The notes beneath the pieces are model-generated. The model saw only the letters and a program-made list of their open reading frames with translations, ran no database searches and was not told where the DNA came from. This document shows, one piece after another, positions 3,589 through 12,293 of a stretch of 44,267 nucleotides of DNA; position 1 is the stretch's first letter; every line of letters begins with the position of its first letter. The stretch is taken from NCBI GenBank assembly GCA_027858455.1, contig JAQICQ010000027.1:1-44267 (forward strand), in the 5' to 3' direction. The translations under genes were made by a program, and so were the position numbers. Source of the stretch: Elusimicrobiota bacterium (GTDB taxonomy: Bacteria > CG03 > SLGR01 > JAGXOG01).

Positions 3589-4686
3589 ATGAGAAGAAAA
3601 ATATTTCGGATTTCAATATTTGTTTTTGTACTTATATCCGTTACCGGTCGAATCTCGGCGACTCAAGCTGAATCTAAATACGCAAAAGCCGAAGTAACAG
3701 GCAGTCCCGAAATAATAGTATCTTCTGCCGGCAGAATCCAGAAAATAAATATTGTAATACTCTCGGGCAAATATAAAGGTTTAATGGCTCCGGTTGATAA
3801 TTACATCTGGGACTATGAAGGATATAATATGCTCCTGTCCGAAGGAGATAAACTTACCCTTAAAATAGTGAAAGATTATGACGGCAGTCTAAGTTTTCTT
3901 GTTATGGGTCGTTACCGGTCTCCTTATATATTTATGGCTCTCGTACTTTTTATTGTTGTTTTTTTTATTATAACGGGTTTTAAGAACAAATGGGCTCTTC
4001 TTATGATTGCTTTTAATATTATTGTTGTCCTGCCCTTGCTTATATTCATTATAAGAACCGGTTTTAATCCTTTTGCTGCCGGAATAATTATATGCGGTGC
4101 GGGGATATTTATATCGGCAGCTGTTATTTTAGGCGGCGGCAAAAAATTTTATGCGGCATCTGCCGGTTCTGTTTTAGGCATATCTGCCGCCGGTGTTTTA
4201 ACCTTAATATTTTTGGACTATATGCACATTGAGGGTATGTTTTCTTCTTCGGCAAGAATGATTCTTGTTGCATCCAGATATTTAAAGGGATGGAATGTAG
4301 GTGATCTTAAAGGTATAGTTGCCGCAGGAATTATGATCGCCAGTTTAGGGGCGGTTATAGATATAGCTGTTTCTATTGTGTCGGCAATGAACCGGATATA
4401 TTTAGAGAGCTCCAAAAGTATTGGCTCGTTAATATTATTTAAATCCGGGTTAAATGTCGGACGGGATATGGTTGCAACTATGTTAAACAGCCTTGTGCTT
4501 GTTTTTACGGGACTCTCTTTGCCAGTTTTAATGGTACTGGGCATAATGGATATACCGTTTATTAAGATTATTAATTTTGAATTTGTTCTTATTACAATAC
4601 TCTCGGCGGTAATATCAAGCTTAGCTTTAATGATTACAGTTCCGGTAACTGCTTATATATCTTCAAGGGTTCTCAGAGATGATTAG
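3589..4686 (+). CDS. YibE/F-family integral membrane protein (signal peptide plus ~100-aa extracytoplasmic N-domain)
   Basis: The protein is multi-TM. YibE/F-type motifs are LGAVIDIAVSIVSAMNRI and GRDMVATMLNSLVLVFTG. Confidence 0.7.
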   Translation: MRRKIFRISIFVFVLISVTGRISATQAESKYAKAEVTGSPEIIVSSAGRIQKINIVILSGKYKGLMAPVDNYIWDYEGYNMLLSEGDKLTLKIVKDYDGSLSFLVMGRYRSPYIFMALVLFIVVFFIITGFKNKWALLMIAFNIIVVLPLLIFIIRTGFNPFAAGIIICGAGIFISAAVILGGGKKFYAASAGSVLGISAAGVLTLIFLDYMHIEGMFSSSARMILVASRYLKGWNVGDLKGIVAAGIMIASLGAVIDIAVSIVSAMNRIYLESSKSIGSLILFKSGLNVGRDMVATMLNSLVLVFTGLSLPVLMVLGIMDIPFIKIINFEFVLITILSAVISSLALMITVPVTAYISSRVLRDD

Positions 4687-8946: not shown

Positions 8947-9621
8947 ATGGATGTGTCCTCTTTTATAGGTTATATACCCGCAGTCTATGCCGCAGGAGTA
9001 GTTACTAGTTTTACTCCGTGTGTATATCCGCTTATACCTGTGGTGGCAGGGGCAATTGGCGGAGCAACTGACAACAGATTAAAAGGGTTTTTGTTTTCTC
9101 TTGTATATGTTTCGGGTATGTCTGTTACATATGCAGTGCTTGGATTAACAGCGTCGCTTGCCGGGAAAATGTTTGGATTTACTTCTCAAAGTCCGTGGAT
9201 AAATATTTTAGTGGCGGCAATGCTAATACTCTTTGGATTGGCAATGCTTGATATAATTAAGCTGCCTCTTATAGGATTAAAAGAGTCCGGGGGAACTAAA
9301 TATTCAGGGACATGGATGGGTATACTTTTGTTGGGGATAGTATCGGGTCTTGTAGCAGCGCCGTGTGCAACTCCGGTGCTGGGAAGTATTCTCACTCTTG
9401 TAGCTGTTAATGTCAAAAATATGATCTCAGGGGCAATTCTTCTGTTTATCTATGGCTTTGGTTTAGGTACATTGCTCATATTTGTAGGTACTTTTTCCGG
9501 ATTGGCGTCTAATCTGCCAAAAAGCGGTCGATGGATGGATATTTTAAAAAAGATATTTGGTATAATGATTATTCTTGCCGGCCTGTATTTTCTTTTGTTC
9601 AAGGGCTTTCATCTGTTTTAA
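8947..9621 (+). CDS. ccdA: Cytochrome c biogenesis/thiol:disulfide electron transporter CcdA (DsbD membrane-domain family)
   Basis: Has SFTPCVYPLIPVV and a second APCATPVLG motif. The protein is 6 TM. Confidence 0.85.
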   Translation: MDVSSFIGYIPAVYAAGVVTSFTPCVYPLIPVVAGAIGGATDNRLKGFLFSLVYVSGMSVTYAVLGLTASLAGKMFGFTSQSPWINILVAAMLILFGLAMLDIIKLPLIGLKESGGTKYSGTWMGILLLGIVSGLVAAPCATPVLGSILTLVAVNVKNMISGAILLFIYGFGLGTLLIFVGTFSGLASNLPKSGRWMDILKKIFGIMIILAGLYFLLFKGFHLF

Positions 9622-9718
9622 TACTATAGAAATTTCCTTTTCCTATAGTATTGATTAGGGATAAAGCGAGTGTGCTTAGCCTGAGAAACAACCATTTAGG
9701 TTGTTTCTGGAACGAGTG

Positions 9719-9764
9719 TGCTCGAGCTGAAAAACGACACATTGGTGTCCTTTTTTTGGGCGCC
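9719..9764. repeat. 46-bp internal direct repeat, copy 1 (hairpin AAAAACGACAC-ATTG-GTGTCCTTTTT)
   Basis: TGCTCGAGCTGAAAAACGACACATTGGTGTCCTTTTTTTGGGCGCC is compared with the copy at 9971-10016. There are about 4 mismatches. Confidence 0.85.
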
Positions 9765-9970
9765 CTCACACGAGCGGCTTCGCAAGGGAAAGAATCTGCT
9801 TTCCCTTATGGGGATGAAGGAACGAACGCATGCGTAAGCATGAAGCAGAGAGTAACTGAATGAGATACAGTGGAAAAAATACCTAAATGGTATTTTTGTA
9901 ACGCCAGAGGGATGAGGGAGCGAACGCTGCTAAATGCAGGAGGAGAGAGCGACCGAATAAAAAGAGTTCT

Positions 9971-10016
9971 TGCTCAGGCTGAAAAACGACACATTGGTGT
10001 CCTTTTTCCGGGCGCC
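9971..10016. repeat. 46-bp internal direct repeat, copy 2
   Basis: The sequence is TGCTCAGGCTGAAAAACGACACATTGGTGTCCTTTTTCCGGGCGCC. This repeat explains the shared peptide AEKRHIGVLF in the two spurious ORFs 9651-9863 and 9870-10058. Confidence 0.85.
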
Positions 10017-10088
10017 TTCGCACCCTATGGAAGTTACGCATGCTTTAGTATGCGCTAACTTAATTTTGGGATTGGAAAAGACCTGCAG

Positions 10089-10117
10089 TTGAAAACGGAC
10101 AGTTAATTTATTATAAA
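10089..10117 (+). promoter_or_regulatory. Putative sigma70-type promoter for tRNA(CAT)
   Basis: TTGAAA (10089-10094), a 17-nt spacer and TATAAA (10112-10117) lie about 18 nt upstream of the mature tRNA 5' end. Confidence 0.5.
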
Positions 10118-10134
10118 CTATGAAAGAGTTTAGT

Positions 10135-10211
10135 GGCGGAGTAGCTCAGGTGGTTAGAGCAGCGGAATCATAATCCGCGTGTCGGGGGTTCGAGTCCCTC
10201 CTCCGCTACCA
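10135..10211 (+). tRNA. tRNA with CAT anticodon: elongator Met or Ile2 (lysidine) type, not initiator
   Basis: A 77-nt cloverleaf was folded by hand: GGCGGAG TA GCTC AGGTGGTTA GAGC A GCGGA ATCATAA TCCGC GTGTC GGGGG TTCGAGT CCCTC CTCCGCT A CCA. CCA is encoded. The anticodon stem lacks the initiator GGG/CCC. Position 1:72 is a G-U pair. Confidence 0.9.
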
Positions 10212-10245
10212 TTAAGATTATTTTATTGATGCAGTAATTATTTAA

Positions 10246-10414
10246 ATACTATAGGAGTTTCCTTTTCCTATAGTATTGATTAGGGATAATAAGGGAAAGA
10301 ATCTGCTTTCCCTTATGGGTGACAGTGGAAAAAATACCTAAATGGTATTTTTGTAACGCCAAAGGGGCATTAGCCCCTATGGAAGTTACGCATGCTTTAG
10401 CATGCGCTAACTTA
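10246..10414. repeat. Compact copy (169 bp) of the mosaic multi-hairpin repeat, downstream of tRNA(CAT)
   Basis: Modules A (10246-10289, 2 mismatches to the left copy), B (10291-10319, identical), C (10322-10361, identical) and D (10376-10414, 1 mismatch) are almost contiguous. A private hairpin AGGGGC-ATTA-GCCCCT sits between C and D. Confidence 0.85.
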
Positions 10415-10424
10415 AAGAGAACAA

Positions 10425-10901
10425 ATGCGAAATTTTAAATTATTAATAGTGGTTTTGATTTTGTCAGCTATATCTTATGGCTGCAAGCAGGCGGGTCTTT
10501 CAGATTACAGTACGCCCGAAGGGACTTATAAGACTTATCTTAAACAGGCAAAGACTTTGAGAGTAGTTGCCGACCACCGCTATTACCGCCGGGCGATAAG
10601 ATGTTTTACAGAAGAAAACCGTGACTGGTTTGAAGAAAAATATGATTCTATTTCATGTGACAAAGAGCCCGGTGTCTATGGCAATCTTTACAGGACAAAA
10701 AAGTATGCTTATGTCTTCGGCCGTTCGGTTGTTCCCGCCGGCCCTTCGCCTGAGAACGAAGAATACTCCGTTAATCGTATTTCTGACGATTCTGCGGCCA
10801 TTACGATTTCCGGATATGAAAATGACGTTAATTTTGTAAAAGTTGGAGGTTCTTGGAAAATAACAGATTTGTTCGGAGTTAAAAAATCTTTAAAAGATTA
10901 A
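10425..10901 (+). CDS. Hypothetical lipoprotein
   Basis: Has a signal peptide with lipobox (LSAISYGC). No family was recognised. Confidence 0.6.
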   Translation: MRNFKLLIVVLILSAISYGCKQAGLSDYSTPEGTYKTYLKQAKTLRVVADHRYYRRAIRCFTEENRDWFEEKYDSISCDKEPGVYGNLYRTKKYAYVFGRSVVPAGPSPENEEYSVNRISDDSAAITISGYENDVNFVKVGGSWKITDLFGVKKSLKD

Positions 10902-10928
10902 AAGCATCAGTATTATGCTTGTTTTCTC

Positions 10929-12293
10929 ATGAATAGAGCGGTTCAAAAAGTCCTGCACTCCGCCGATTTTAACAGCCCACTCGTATTAGCGGTATCCGGC
11001 GGTAAAGACTCTGTTTCCATGCTTGACATGGTTATGAAATTTGCAAAAAAGTTCAAATTCCCTCCGGAAATAGTACATTTCAATCATGGTTTAAGAGAGG
11101 AAAGCAAAGAAGAAGAAGGGTTTATCAGGTCTCTTGGCGATAATTATAAAATTAAAGTTAAAATATTTAAATTAAATACTCTTGAATTTAAAAACCAAAA
11201 TAAACTTTCAACCGAAGAGGCCGCGCGTCAACTCAGGTATCAGATGTTGGCGAACTATACCGCCGGTAAAGATAATCCAGGGTATATATATACCGGACAT
11301 AACGCGGGGGATCAGGCAGAAACCCTGCTTTTTAGAGTTATTACCGGCACCGGCAGAACCGGTTTGACGGGGATAAGGGACAGCCTGACTCTTGATTCCG
11401 GATGGAAAGTTAAAAGGCCGTTGCTGGATATTACACCAGAAGAAATCAGCGACTATGCCGAATCCAATAACCTTAAATATGTTATTGATAAAAGTAACTT
11501 TGATGAATCAATTCCCAGGAATTATATAAGAAAAAGAATAGTGCCTCTCTTAAAAAACTTAAATCCGGCTGCGGAGAAGAATATTAAAAAACTTACAGAC
11601 ATATTGAAGTCAGAGGAAGATTTTTTAAGTGCAGAGTTCAAAAATAAATTCAAAGAGGCTAAAATAAGACGGGAAGGCGATAAAACATACATTGAATTAA
11701 ATTCCATTATTAGTTATAATAAGTGGATACAAAGAAGATTGATACGTAAAGTGTCTCCGGTAGTTCTTGATTATGACCGTATAAATTCCATTGAAAAGTT
11801 AATAACCAAAGGGGGAGCTTCCCGGTATATTGATATAGGAGAAGGATGGAAAGCCCGGAAGGTTTACGGCCGGCTTGTTTTTGAAAAAAGTCTGCCTGAA
11901 TTTAAGGATTTTTTTTACAAGCTGAAGCCGGGGAAGAAATTAGATATCAGTCCCGCCGGAATAATTTTAAAAGCTCTTGAAACAAGCCCCGAAAATATTG
12001 ATTATACCGAGGAGAATACAGAATATTTTGATATGGGTCGGATAGATCCGGATAATATATGGGTCAGGTCCCGAAAAGACGGAGACAGAATGAGCCTGTT
12101 CGGGATGAAGGGCACAAAAAAAATAAAGGACATCTGTATTGATTTAAAACTTAATTTAGAAGAGAGAAATGATCTCTTAATAATAGGATCGGAAAATAAA
12201 ATAATGTGGGCCGCGCCCTGCAGGCGTTCGGCAACGGCCCCTGTAGCTAAAAATACCGGGAGGATACTTAAAATAGTTTATGAAAGAGGATAA
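10929..12293 (+). CDS. tilS: tRNA(Ile)-lysidine synthase
   Basis: Has the PP-loop LAVSGGKDSVSML, GHNAGDQAETLLFR, and the C-terminal TilS domain (R.R..GDR......G.KK.K....D.K.......P). Confidence 0.9.
   Translation: MNRAVQKVLHSADFNSPLVLAVSGGKDSVSMLDMVMKFAKKFKFPPEIVHFNHGLREESKEEEGFIRSLGDNYKIKVKIFKLNTLEFKNQNKLSTEEAARQLRYQMLANYTAGKDNPGYIYTGHNAGDQAETLLFRVITGTGRTGLTGIRDSLTLDSGWKVKRPLLDITPEEISDYAESNNLKYVIDKSNFDESIPRNYIRKRIVPLLKNLNPAAEKNIKKLTDILKSEEDFLSAEFKNKFKEAKIRREGDKTYIELNSIISYNKWIQRRLIRKVSPVVLDYDRINSIEKLITKGGASRYIDIGEGWKARKVYGRLVFEKSLPEFKDFFYKLKPGKKLDISPAGIILKALETSPENIDYTEENTEYFDMGRIDPDNIWVRSRKDGDRMSLFGMKGTKKIKDICIDLKLNLEERNDLLIIGSENKIMWAAPCRRSATAPVAKNTGRILKIVYERG

Follow-up and report, generated by a model that had tools for sequence, protein, structure and literature searches.

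The window analyzed here, a whole 44,267-nt stretch of DNA from a 1.63-Mb Elusimicrobiota genome (G000), contains two copies of a gene-free repeat built of hairpins, one on each side of a tRNA-Met gene. The repeat, comprising modules A–D and a further hairpin, P4, is one conserved unit across many phyla, has no match to any catalogued RNA family or transposon, and is not tied to the tRNA. With a probability of roughly 0.6, we believe that it represents a new family of non-autonomous, structure-dependent mobile elements that work like REP/RPE repeats or by an HUH-type route, and that its two copies here arose by independent insertions.

The compact copy displays the five hairpins (P1–P5) and the junctions (J) between them:

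10246-10414, + strand: compact five-hairpin element, 169 nt, terminus ...AACTTA (CM R1 score 177.8 bits)
10246-10276, + strand: P1 hairpin
10277-10288, + strand: junction J1/2, UGAUUAGGGAUAA
10289-10316, + strand: P2 hairpin
10317-10326, + strand: junction J2/3, UGGGUGACAG
10330-10352, + strand: P3 hairpin
10359-10382, + strand: P4 hairpin, GGGGC-ATTA-GCCCC
10383-10413, + strand: P5 hairpin

Compact forms are 145–170 nt long and carry no gene. The original prediction described about 800 bp without credible coding, and we likewise find no credible ORF in 9622-10424. It also described four hairpin modules, A–D, which are present where it placed them and recur in the same order upstream of the tRNA; the fifth hairpin, P4, where conservation within the element is highest, had been overlooked. 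The modules are indeed highly similar between the two copies, with 0–3 mismatches per module rather than the 0–2 first reported. Module A (9616-9664 vs 10241-10289) is 94% identical, module B (9784-9812 vs 10291-10319) 100%, module C (9860-9911 vs 10315-10366) 92%, rising to 98% over a 45-nt core, and module D (10023-10063 vs 10375-10415) 98%. The junctions are nearly invariant and purine-rich (..UUAGGG.., GGGGUGACAG, and GCCAGAGGGGC-loop-GCCCCUAUGGAAGU).

Both folding and covariation, which had been suggested as checks, support a conserved single-strand fold. The compact copy has a predicted fold of −70.7 kcal/mol (z = −7.8), equaled by none of 200 shuffles; a comparable fold is predicted for the opposite strand (z = −9.05), as expected because the element is built of palindromes. 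The stems covary across genomes: 91% of cells are paired, and 30 of 36 pairs have changes on both sides. None of 500 shuffles is as good, and sliding the partners collapses the signal. G·U outnumbers A·C only weakly among the helix positions (43 vs 29). Inspection by eye of a pairing between J1/2 and the 3′ strand of P4 gave one compensatory case (in G004) and no confirmation from the other variants. In the sequences of the GC-rich versions from Gemmatimonadota and Planctomycetota, the P1 and P5 loops are complementary (GGUGACGUAU/AUACGUCAC), as they are in Holophagaceae (CUGGAUCA/UGAUCCA); small versions lack these kissing loops.

The upstream copy keeps the core order and contains three inserts:

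9621-10062, + strand: interrupted copy, 442 nt; empty site in the congener G001
9621-9665, + strand: P1 hairpin and J1/2 (repeat family D3)
9666-9783, + strand: insert 1, consisting of X1, then X2, then the X1 tail; repeats on other contigs
about 9666-9712, + strand: module X1, hairpin GAAACAACC/GGTTGTTTC, with its tail CGAGCGGCTTCGC after X2
about 9713-9770, + strand: module X2, interrupting X1 near the X1 3′ end
9784-9812, + strand: P2 hairpin (family D7, 100%)
9813-9866, + strand: insert 2, within J2/3, module Y (GAUGA-stem-GAAC-hairpin-purine run-stem-GAAU)
9867-9911, + strand: end of J2/3, P3, and 5′ strand of P4 (family D1)
9912-10022, + strand: insert 3, in the P4 loop, module Z then a second X2
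9912-9970, + strand: module Z, a relative of Y
9971-10022, + strand: second X2 copy, X2′ (family D2)
10023-10062, + strand: 3′ strand of P4 (CCCUAUGG) and P5, terminus ...AACTTA (family D6)
10089-10117, + strand: promoter-like TTGAAA-17 nt-TATAAA before the tRNA, read from the sequence; host DNA outside the element
10135-10211, + strand: tRNA-Met, anticodon CAT (ARAGORN, Rfam), host gene between both insertions

The inserts X and Y/Z are small repeats separate from the five-hairpin element. C227, C228, and G001 each have an uninterrupted X1 at the corresponding position. X2 is repeated within the window (9719-9771 vs 9971-10023, 89%) and also lies on contigs C59 and C179, with related X-type copies on C33 and C29. 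Module Y recurs in C202, C228, C23, and C3, is the difference between the near-identical loci C71 and C202, and has a covarying stem (GGAAC/GTTCC, GGACAC/GTGTCC); Z occurs without X2 in C228 and C23. We propose that X and Y/Z are two other families of small hairpin repeats that later invaded the upstream copy, and that within the core they may prefer three insertion places: J2/3, the P4 loop, and the position following J1/2. The mosaic appearance of the upstream copy is explained by this nesting.

ARAGORN and Rfam agree with the earlier placement of a tRNA-Met(CAT) between the two copies. The gene is present in 14 of 14 genomes of the order, and the promoter block also precedes it in relatives without the element. 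The congener G001 has the tRNA, the promoter, and both neighboring genes and neither element copy; its empty site at the position of the upstream copy reads ...CTATTTTA^ATTTTCAGG. The upstream copy probably inserted after the stop codon of the preceding gene and ahead of the tRNA promoter, and the compact copy would be a separate insertion between the tRNA and the next gene. Because both sides of the tRNA are empty in a congener, the element has moved recently. The suggestion that the region is a duplicated leader or trailer RNA of the tRNA fails, because most copies have no tRNA nearby and the G001 tRNA locus lacks the element.

The element is dispersed through the genome. About 12 other contigs of G000 carry copies, some whole and others partial or decayed (whole or partial on C71, C202, C227, C228, C23, C3, C44, C57, C221, C84, and C182), many of them at contig ends of this 236-contig MAG. 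Searching the modules against the rest of the genome therefore favors the dispersed, mosaic, hairpin-built extragenic repeat originally envisaged, with modules recurring singly and in other combinations. As was also recognized from the start, the region is no CRISPR array or tandem repeat, as its modules are unlike one another and irregularly spaced.

Insertions differ between the congeners in both directions. In addition to both sides of tRNA-Met, sites on C227, C71, and C3 are filled in G000 and empty in G001, whereas G001:C85 and G001:C42 are filled and their G000 counterparts (C181 and C203, respectively) lack the element. Internally deleted copies retain both termini (C182, the first C228 copy, C57, and G001:C52). 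On C228, one copy is inserted straight after the ..GCTAACTTG end of a decayed copy. A further precise insertion lies in the D-loop of a tRNA-Glu gene, and an intact duplicate is nested alongside the interrupted gene.

A covariance model finds the element in 8 of 14 genomes of the order, and genomes without any element exist within the same family. An exact 22-base core pattern identifies 49 loci in MAGs labeled as >10 phyla (all phylum assignments here are MAG labels, e.g., ‘Clostridia’ or ‘Elusimicrobia’), and the core-pattern family is also present on >120 metagenome contigs. Viral contigs, phage records, and plasmid records yielded zero copies. Rfam 15 returned only the tRNA for window positions 9000-11000 at E up to 1, and only tRNA or RNase P, with no match to the element, when copies of six further lineages were scanned at E up to 0.1. 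Literature searches retrieved no description of the element family.

Copies of the element nearly always come after a gene on their own strand. The nearest upstream ORF is co-oriented with the element at 32 of 34 loci, implying that the element is read through from the preceding gene, and the downstream ORF is co-oriented at 31 of 43. No gene family is enriched next to the element: among 143 neighboring ORFs with 161 Pfam families, none of the 25 commonest families listed occurs in >2 ORFs, and all 25 are housekeeping. A riboswitch or other 5′-UTR cis-regulator was rejected given the downstream co-orientation of just 31/43 and the unrelated housekeeping neighbors. Several species of MAGs labeled Clostridia share orthologous copies before rpsF, nrdR, and genes for aspartokinase, an aminotransferase, and cobO. 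The Shine–Dalgarno (SD) sequence and TTG start of nrdR come from the 3′ end of the element, and the SD of rpsF is carried by a P5 variant. On C44, a copy lies exactly between two tRNAs. Two in-gene copies are 147 and 150 nt long, multiples of three, and free of stops in the host frame, whereas most intergenic copies are closed in the single frame tested, from a conserved AUG; this difference suggests that in-gene copies are translated, not removed. A small conserved ORF starting at the AUG of CCCUAUGGAAGU was rejected, as its frame closes within the element in most copies.

Automatic boundary calling was poor, so the flank statistics come partly from alignments read by eye. G000 copies begin with ATACTATAGG... 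and end with ...GCGCTAACTTA; they have no terminal inverted repeats, and both ends adjoin a hairpin. The left flank closes with ..TTA, TTG, or CTG, like the 3′ terminus of the element (..AACTTR or ..ATCTTG), and left flanks resemble the terminus over 5–10 nt. In 11 of 14 G000-clade cases read by eye, the terminus and the left flank finish with an identical base, A or G; flank and terminus differ at three informative sites (CTG vs TTG and, twice, TTA vs TTG). At site a, TTA/TTAA can be read on both sides. Copies of the GC-rich clade, from other phyla, have GTG...CAC ends and imperfect inverted repeats of 11–13 nt (by eye), with T(N)A on both sides (permutation p 0.005): CTA|..|TAG at seven loci and exact TAA, TCA, or TTA pairs at three.

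From the ends of the G000 copies we infer an HUH-type, strand-specific nick-and-join route, as in IS200/IS605, IS91, and REP–RAYT systems. A trans-acting enzyme would recognize the folded strand and insert it beside a sequence that mimics the element terminus. The lack of inverted repeats, the hairpin at each end, and the terminus-like left flank all fit such a route. Counting against it, no candidate enzyme appears among the proteins searched, the G·U excess is slight, and both strands fold. All that G000 offers is an IS200 fragment on C172 and, at one end of C25, a RAYT-like ORF that is truncated on its 5′ side; the element flanks neither. Profile searches of G000 gave no Y2_Tnp, Rep_1, RVT_1, DDE_Tnp_1, or DDE_3, with the proviso that the Y2_Tnp and Rep_1 profiles (PF04986, PF01446) matched nothing in the control genomes either, leaving their sensitivity unproven, and that MAGs are incomplete. 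Among five other carriers, two have Y1_Tnp and none has Y2_Tnp. Neither G000 nor these five yielded an IS91 or RC-Rep enzyme, in searches whose controls were silent, and G000 has no IS5- or IS630-type DDE enzyme. In G007, one Y1 gene lies about 270 nt downstream of an element copy. A RAYT link across the order was rejected: Y1_Tnp is present in 8/8 carriers and 3/6 non-carriers, a difference that is not significant among non-independent genomes. Also discarded were a retroelement (no RVT_1 in G000) and an omega-RNA of TnpB, as the 3′ structure that comes after the sole TnpB fragment (at the end of C178) is unrelated.

Several known systems share features with the element. REPs are believed to owe their mobility to a single-copy HUH Y1 enzyme acting in trans (PMC3116915, PMC3337134). 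Like REPs, REPINs, and BIMEs, the element is extragenic, hairpin-based, combined into mosaics, long-lived in lineages, and usually found after genes. However, REPs are 20–40 nt long, with a conserved 5′ GTAG, inverted pairs, and hundreds of copies, whereas the element is 150 nt long, with five different hairpins, one orientation, and about 10–15 copies. It flanks no RAYT on both sides, and three carriers have no Y1_Tnp match. The REP/BIME membership first entertained finds no support: there is no 5′-GTAG REP unit and no inverted REP pair, and the RAYT association is inconsistent. Rickettsia palindromic elements (RPEs) occur in-frame within protein genes and also in RNA genes (PMC1779305, PMC10969869). 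Both RPEs and the element are about 100–150 bp long, hairpin-rich, gene-free, and scattered between genes, with occasional in-frame copies in protein genes and copies in RNA genes, and for neither is a mobilizing enzyme known. RPEs are restricted to Rickettsia and relatives, and no resemblance to them in sequence was noticed; the element has hosts in other phyla, under >10 labels, and has a fixed five-hairpin fold, invariant junctions, and an almost constant sense orientation.

Members of the IS91 family lack target-site duplications and have subterminal palindromes, and IS801 and IS1294 have GTTC at the target and the ter end (PMC13181058). In the G000 clade, the element likewise resembles IS91 and IS200/IS605 in having no inverted repeats, no clear target duplication, and hairpins at both ends, and, as in IS91, a short target sequence resembles its own terminus. 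A would-be circle junction can be compared with the pC194 origin at what we take to be the nick position of the latter. The junction, TTATCTTG^A, resembles the origin TTCTTATCTTGATAATAAGGG (origin sequence: PMC7072734). Unlike IS91 and IS200/IS605, the element has no consistent Y1/Y2 transposase and no autonomous parent was found, and its conserved part is the interior, not the ends alone. BOX in Streptococcus pneumoniae and ERIC in enterobacteria are modular intergenic repeats with optional internal modules that are transcribed with their neighbors and can form long RNA structures. The element shares their modular intergenic design; BOX and ERIC differ in being lineage-restricted and unrelated in sequence, with no cross-phylum conservation.

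Near-invariant junctions and copies kept at orthologous sites would also be expected of a functional RNA. The element could be mainly an RNA module of 3′-UTRs and intercistronic space that is selected at many operon junctions, where it could stabilize, process, or insulate mRNAs or supply ribosome-binding sites, with copy-number changes being secondary. The bias toward co-oriented upstream over downstream ORFs, the covarying stems and constant junctions across phyla, the orthologous copies in MAGs labeled Clostridia, and the element-derived signals of nrdR and rpsF favor this explanation, as does the C44 copy, which tRNA processing should free as a discrete RNA. We nonetheless think it unlikely, as loci are mostly unshared even by congeners, the element is entirely missing from other genomes of the family, many copies are decayed or internally deleted, copies sit within coding genes and a tRNA gene, and the neighboring genes have no theme. 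Some of these features could suit a small catalytic RNA, self-cleaving or self-splicing, with the junctions as active site and a fold that joins the ends. Ribozyme classes likewise combine a conserved junction core with variable stems, the P1/P5 loop complementarity of GC-rich versions would juxtapose the ends, sense orientation is almost obligatory, and copies lie inside a tRNA gene and ORFs. This too is very doubtful: Rfam gave zero ribozyme or intron matches (E up to 1 for the window), the in-gene copies appear to be translated, the interrupted tRNA-Glu has an intact duplicate beside it, and small versions lack the kissing loops.

Other explanations retain mobility and change its agent. Judged by sequence, the inverted repeats and T(N)A flanks of the GC-rich clade look like a DDE-type target duplication, not the HUH route. 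They would suit a classical MITE moved by an IS630- or IS5-like DDE transposase with a 2–3-bp T(N)A/TTR duplication, the low-GC clade having lost its inverted repeats; the 11/14 agreement of terminus and left-flank last bases in the G000 clade points the same way. We give such a MITE little credence, as G000 copies have no inverted repeats, flank and terminus mismatch at three informative sites, G000 has no DDE_Tnp_1 or DDE_3 gene, and a DDE route leaves selection on five internal hairpins and their junctions unexplained. It is also improbable that the element is a self-sufficient or host-factor-dependent structured nucleic-acid parasite, whose conserved junction core would act either as a novel catalytic motif, in RNA or ssDNA, or as a target recognized by some universal housekeeping enzyme. 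An assembly chimera would account for the many copies at contig ends, yet in many independent assemblies the element is found within long contigs, and neither window copy is at an end of its 44-kb contig; together with a tRNA-specific leader or trailer, contradicted by 13 relatives in which the tRNA locus is independent of the element, we regard it as scarcely credible.

Small gene-free repeats are usually lineage-specific and defined by their ends. The element described here is instead defined by an internal five-hairpin fold, and its junctions are almost unchanged among MAGs labeled Elusimicrobia and Clostridia and in Holophagaceae, Planctomycetota, and Gemmatimonadota, yet it moves within a genus. 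This combination of cross-phylum conservation and within-genus movement points to a widely available mobilizing activity or a co-travelling RNA function. If the parasite explanation were true, a gene-free 150-nt sequence would be spreading and persisting in >10 phyla, and would constitute a mobile-element class of its own rather than a miniature of a known transposon. The element breaks MAG assemblies at contig ends, sits in tRNA clusters, can add about 50 residues to proteins, and, as with nrdR and rpsF, can provide genes with ribosome-binding sites and start codons. For these reasons, it should be known to gene callers and RNA annotators.

The tRNA-Met(CAT) gene of contig C106 lies in a tract of 803 bases without a credible open reading frame (ORF) that runs from the stop codon of one gene (8947-9621) to the start of another (10425), in agreement with the ∼800-bp non-coding tract of the original prediction. 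The contig belongs to a metagenome-assembled genome (MAG; here G000) of 1.63 Mb, 236 contigs and 94.7% completeness. The tract contains:

9621-10062: interrupted element copy, 5′ of tRNA-Met
9666-9783: insert X1+X2 in the upstream copy, between J1/2 (the P1-P2 junction) and P2
9813-9866: insert Y in the upstream copy, within J2/3
9912-10022: insert Z+X2′ in the upstream copy, in the P4 loop
10135-10211: tRNA-Met(CAT)
10246-10414: compact element copy, 169 nt, 3′ of tRNA-Met
10246-10276: P1 hairpin
10289-10316: P2 hairpin
10330-10352: P3 hairpin
10359-10382: P4 hairpin, CCAGAGGGGC-loop-GCCCCUAUGG
10383-10413: P5 hairpin

The same modules had been predicted in the same order on both sides of the tRNA, and the pieces of the upstream copy indeed follow an identical order at 92–100% identity to the compact copy. 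Fold computation gives the compact copy five hairpins in series (−70.7 kcal/mol, z = −7.8). Four had been recognized and are present; the overlooked one, P4, is the most conserved part of the element. The upstream copy is decorated with nested secondary repeats, the small hairpin modules X, Y and Z. Its Y/Z and X stems (9813-9866, 9912-9970 and 9713-9771) are bracketed by G-A ... G-A, reading AUGA-stem-GAAU (and CGA-GUGUG...CACAC-GAG), and could form tandem sheared G.A pairs or k-turn-like motifs; P1 in other clades has the same bracket.

The element recurs far beyond this locus. The core is present in eight of 14 species genomes of the order and was not found in any of 12 other genomes of the small phylum. 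Across databases, the exact pattern GCCAGAGGGGC-N3-8-CCTATGGAAGT matched 49 loci among one-per-species genomes and at least 120 metagenome contigs, whose carriers bear submitter labels including Holophagaceae/Geothrix, Clostridia, Elusimicrobiota, UBP18, Gemmatimonadota, Planctomycetota, Hydrogenedentota, Auribacterota, Edwardsbacteria, NPL-UPA2 and CSSED10-310. (The record of G001, the congener of G000, is labelled ‘Elusimicrobia bacterium LH_S2’; loci L111 and L036, on its contig C35, coincide.) Neither the window copies nor copies of six other lineages match a family in Rfam 15, and phage, plasmid and viral-contig collections contained no copy. All copies share one architecture, with near-constant junctions and stems that vary with compensation. 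In a model-guided alignment of 61 distinct sequences, standard pairs fill 91% of pair cells and both sides change at 30 of 36 pairs, figures that lean towards the structure because the alignment was fitted to it. None of 500 shuffles reaches the observed covariation values, the signal collapses once partners are slid, and compensatory changes are plain by eye in the read alignments as well. In GC-rich versions the arms of P1 and P5 are long, and the two loops complement each other.

Within G000, BLAST and a covariance model built on nine compact copies (R1) recovered the element, whole or in part, on C71, C202, C227, C228, C23, C3, C44, C57, C221, C84 and C182. Many lie at contig ends, as expected of a repeat that breaks assemblies. 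Optional-module content varies from copy to copy, and the modules also occur apart from the core. Module X is found in three tandem copies on C29, singly on C33, 3′ of a tRNA on C75, nested in the loop of a second X on C59 and, on C179, flanking an integrase fragment on both sides; in two other genera, this tRNA-Met is followed by Y/Z-type modules without a core. The mosaic thus comprises at least three small hairpin-repeat families, nested in each other at preferred positions. The proposed check for modules elsewhere in the genome thus favours the original reading.

Several of these loci are informative in themselves. C71:3100-3590 and C202:1-400 are the same locus, an element followed by a CBS-domain gene, near-identical except for module Y and a few SNPs, reflecting either strain heterogeneity within the MAG or a recent duplication. 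At C59:8750-9005 (minus strand), an X-type module sits exactly in another X-type hairpin loop (GACA|...|TTAGTGTC), and X is therefore itself mobile, with its own loop as target. At C179:6600-7150, a tyrosine recombinase C-terminal fragment (…HTLRKTWGY…GHSSPAVTK…) lies between two X2 modules, the second of which replaces the region expected to bear the catalytic Tyr. At C75:1-550, a ∼170-nt block 3′ of a tRNA has a reversed X module and terminates with a second copy of that tRNA’s 3′ end (GTCCTGCATTGCCCACCA), the signature of integration there.

Comparison with G001 shows that the element is mobile. The tRNA-Met locus of G001 has the same flanking genes and promoter block and lacks both copies; at the upstream insertion site, ...CTATTTTAATTTTCAGG in G001 corresponds to ...CTGTTTTA[element]ATTTTGGG in G000. 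The proposed link to the tRNA accordingly dissolves, the tRNA being incidental. The C227, C71 and C3 loci are also empty in G001, and, conversely, two loci filled in G001 lack the element in G000. Copies have often lost internal sequence and kept both ends (as on C182 and C57, in the first C228 copy and on C52 of G001), and one copy begins immediately behind a decayed copy ending in ..GCTAACTTG. Elsewhere, the element has inserted cleanly in a tRNA-Glu D-loop (TAGCCTG|element|GTTAGGAC), with the intact form in a related MAG.

In MAG CSMAG_2684 (L097, ∼4050-4440) and at L116, three insertions split a tRNA-Glu(TTC) gene: the element occupies the D-loop, a small hairpin separates the D stem from the anticodon stem, and a large insert in the anticodon loop contains a complete second tRNA-Glu bordered by inverted repeats. 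The two tRNA-Glu variants have exchanged roles at L116. The spacer after tRNA-Met is a hot spot for gaining repeats; in two element-free genomes it holds an unrelated short tandem repeat, GTTTTAGTTTTTGTGAGGTAAT ×4 (G003, L122), and an unrelated ∼30-nt GAAA.ATCT.G-type repeat (G013, L130).

Copies also lie inside genes. A 147-nt copy lies in a PAS domain encoded by a sensor kinase gene (1369 aa), and a 150-nt copy follows codon 4 of a NAD-dependent epimerase gene, where its final codons, GTT ATC TTG, re-form the first β-strand’s VIL. Both are in frame without stops; intergenic copies are mostly closed in the one frame tested, set by a conserved AUG. Clostridia-labelled MAGs retain copies at the same junctions across several species. 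At nrdR (L090, L177, L193, L233 and L241), the element’s ...GGGGGTTATCTTG supplies the SD and TTG start, with an orphaned SD+TTG left of the element, and at rpsF (L079, L081, L094, L180 and L248), a P5 variant carries the GAGGA SD. These arrangements suggest a mobile repeat co-opted into translation initiation regions.

Counting orthologous loci repeatedly, so that events are not independent, the nearest upstream ORF is co-stranded with the element in 32 of 34 loci and the downstream ORF in 31 of 43. The element thus sits 3′ of a gene reading into it, within operons or between convergent genes, and almost never antisense or in divergent promoter regions. Position and orientation rule out a 5′ riboswitch. 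The bias fits either a role or constraint at the level of RNA or insertion by a strand-specific route.

The element has no gene of its own and no visible partner. The 143 ORFs found no farther than 2 kb from 49 loci matched 161 Pfam families, of which the 25 commonest are all housekeeping and occur at most twice. G000 encodes a RAYT-like Y1 ORF, 5′-truncated at a contig end (C25:2480-2934), a fragment of IS200, the C-terminus of a TnpB with an unrelated structure on its 3′ side (C178:11400-11726) and, from reading the sequence rather than a family scan, an IS256-like transposase-like ORF. Profiles for RVT_1, Y2_Tnp, Rep_1, DDE_Tnp_1 and DDE_3 found nothing in G000; those for Y2_Tnp and Rep_1 were also silent in control genomes and are weak negatives. 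Y1_Tnp occurs in all eight carriers and three of six non-carriers of the order, with only one gene near a copy; among five carriers of other phyla, Y1_Tnp is present in two and Y2_Tnp in none, the latter search being silent in all control genomes. Contig ends cut both the TnpB C-terminus and the RAYT-like gene; mobile-element genes are probably under-assembled in G000, which weakens every transposase negative for this MAG.

The ends point in two directions. Copies in G000 lack inverted repeats; the left border is the P1 start, and P5 ends one base short of the right border. At the terminus, copies in G000 read ..AACTT(A/G), and those in Clostridia-labelled and UBP18-like MAGs read ..ATCTTG. 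The last bases of left flanks are TTA, TTAA, TTG or CTG, with several flanks terminus-like over 5–10 nt. Flank and terminus mismatch at three informative sites (CTG/TTG, TTA/TTG and TTA/TTG), and the terminus in G000’s clade therefore looks intrinsic, not duplicated. The end geometry of G000’s clade matches IS91-family and IS200/IS605-type elements (PMC13181058). The would-be circle junction, TTATCTTG^A, resembles the pC194 origin (sequence listed in PMC7072734) if set against its presumed nick position, which offers a lead on the route rather than a test of it. In the GC-rich clade, however, GTG...CAC ends form imperfect 11–13-nt inverted repeats with T(N)A on both sides, and flanks match exactly over 3 nt in three of 17 loci (permutation p 0.005). 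These ends look like DDE-type duplication and would count against an IS91/IS200/IS605-like route. Since, in addition, the excess of G.U over A.C is weak (43 versus 29) and both strands fold, such a route is an inference rather than a demonstrated result.

The original reading of a dispersed mosaic palindromic element was right in kind, with copies spread over G000 in varying module combinations, and its assignment to REP/BIME elements fails. The element belongs to a hitherto undescribed family of small structured mobile elements that crosses phyla. Possibly it is primarily a functional RNA, or catalytic; if RNA function or catalysis is primary, the finding would be considerably more interesting.
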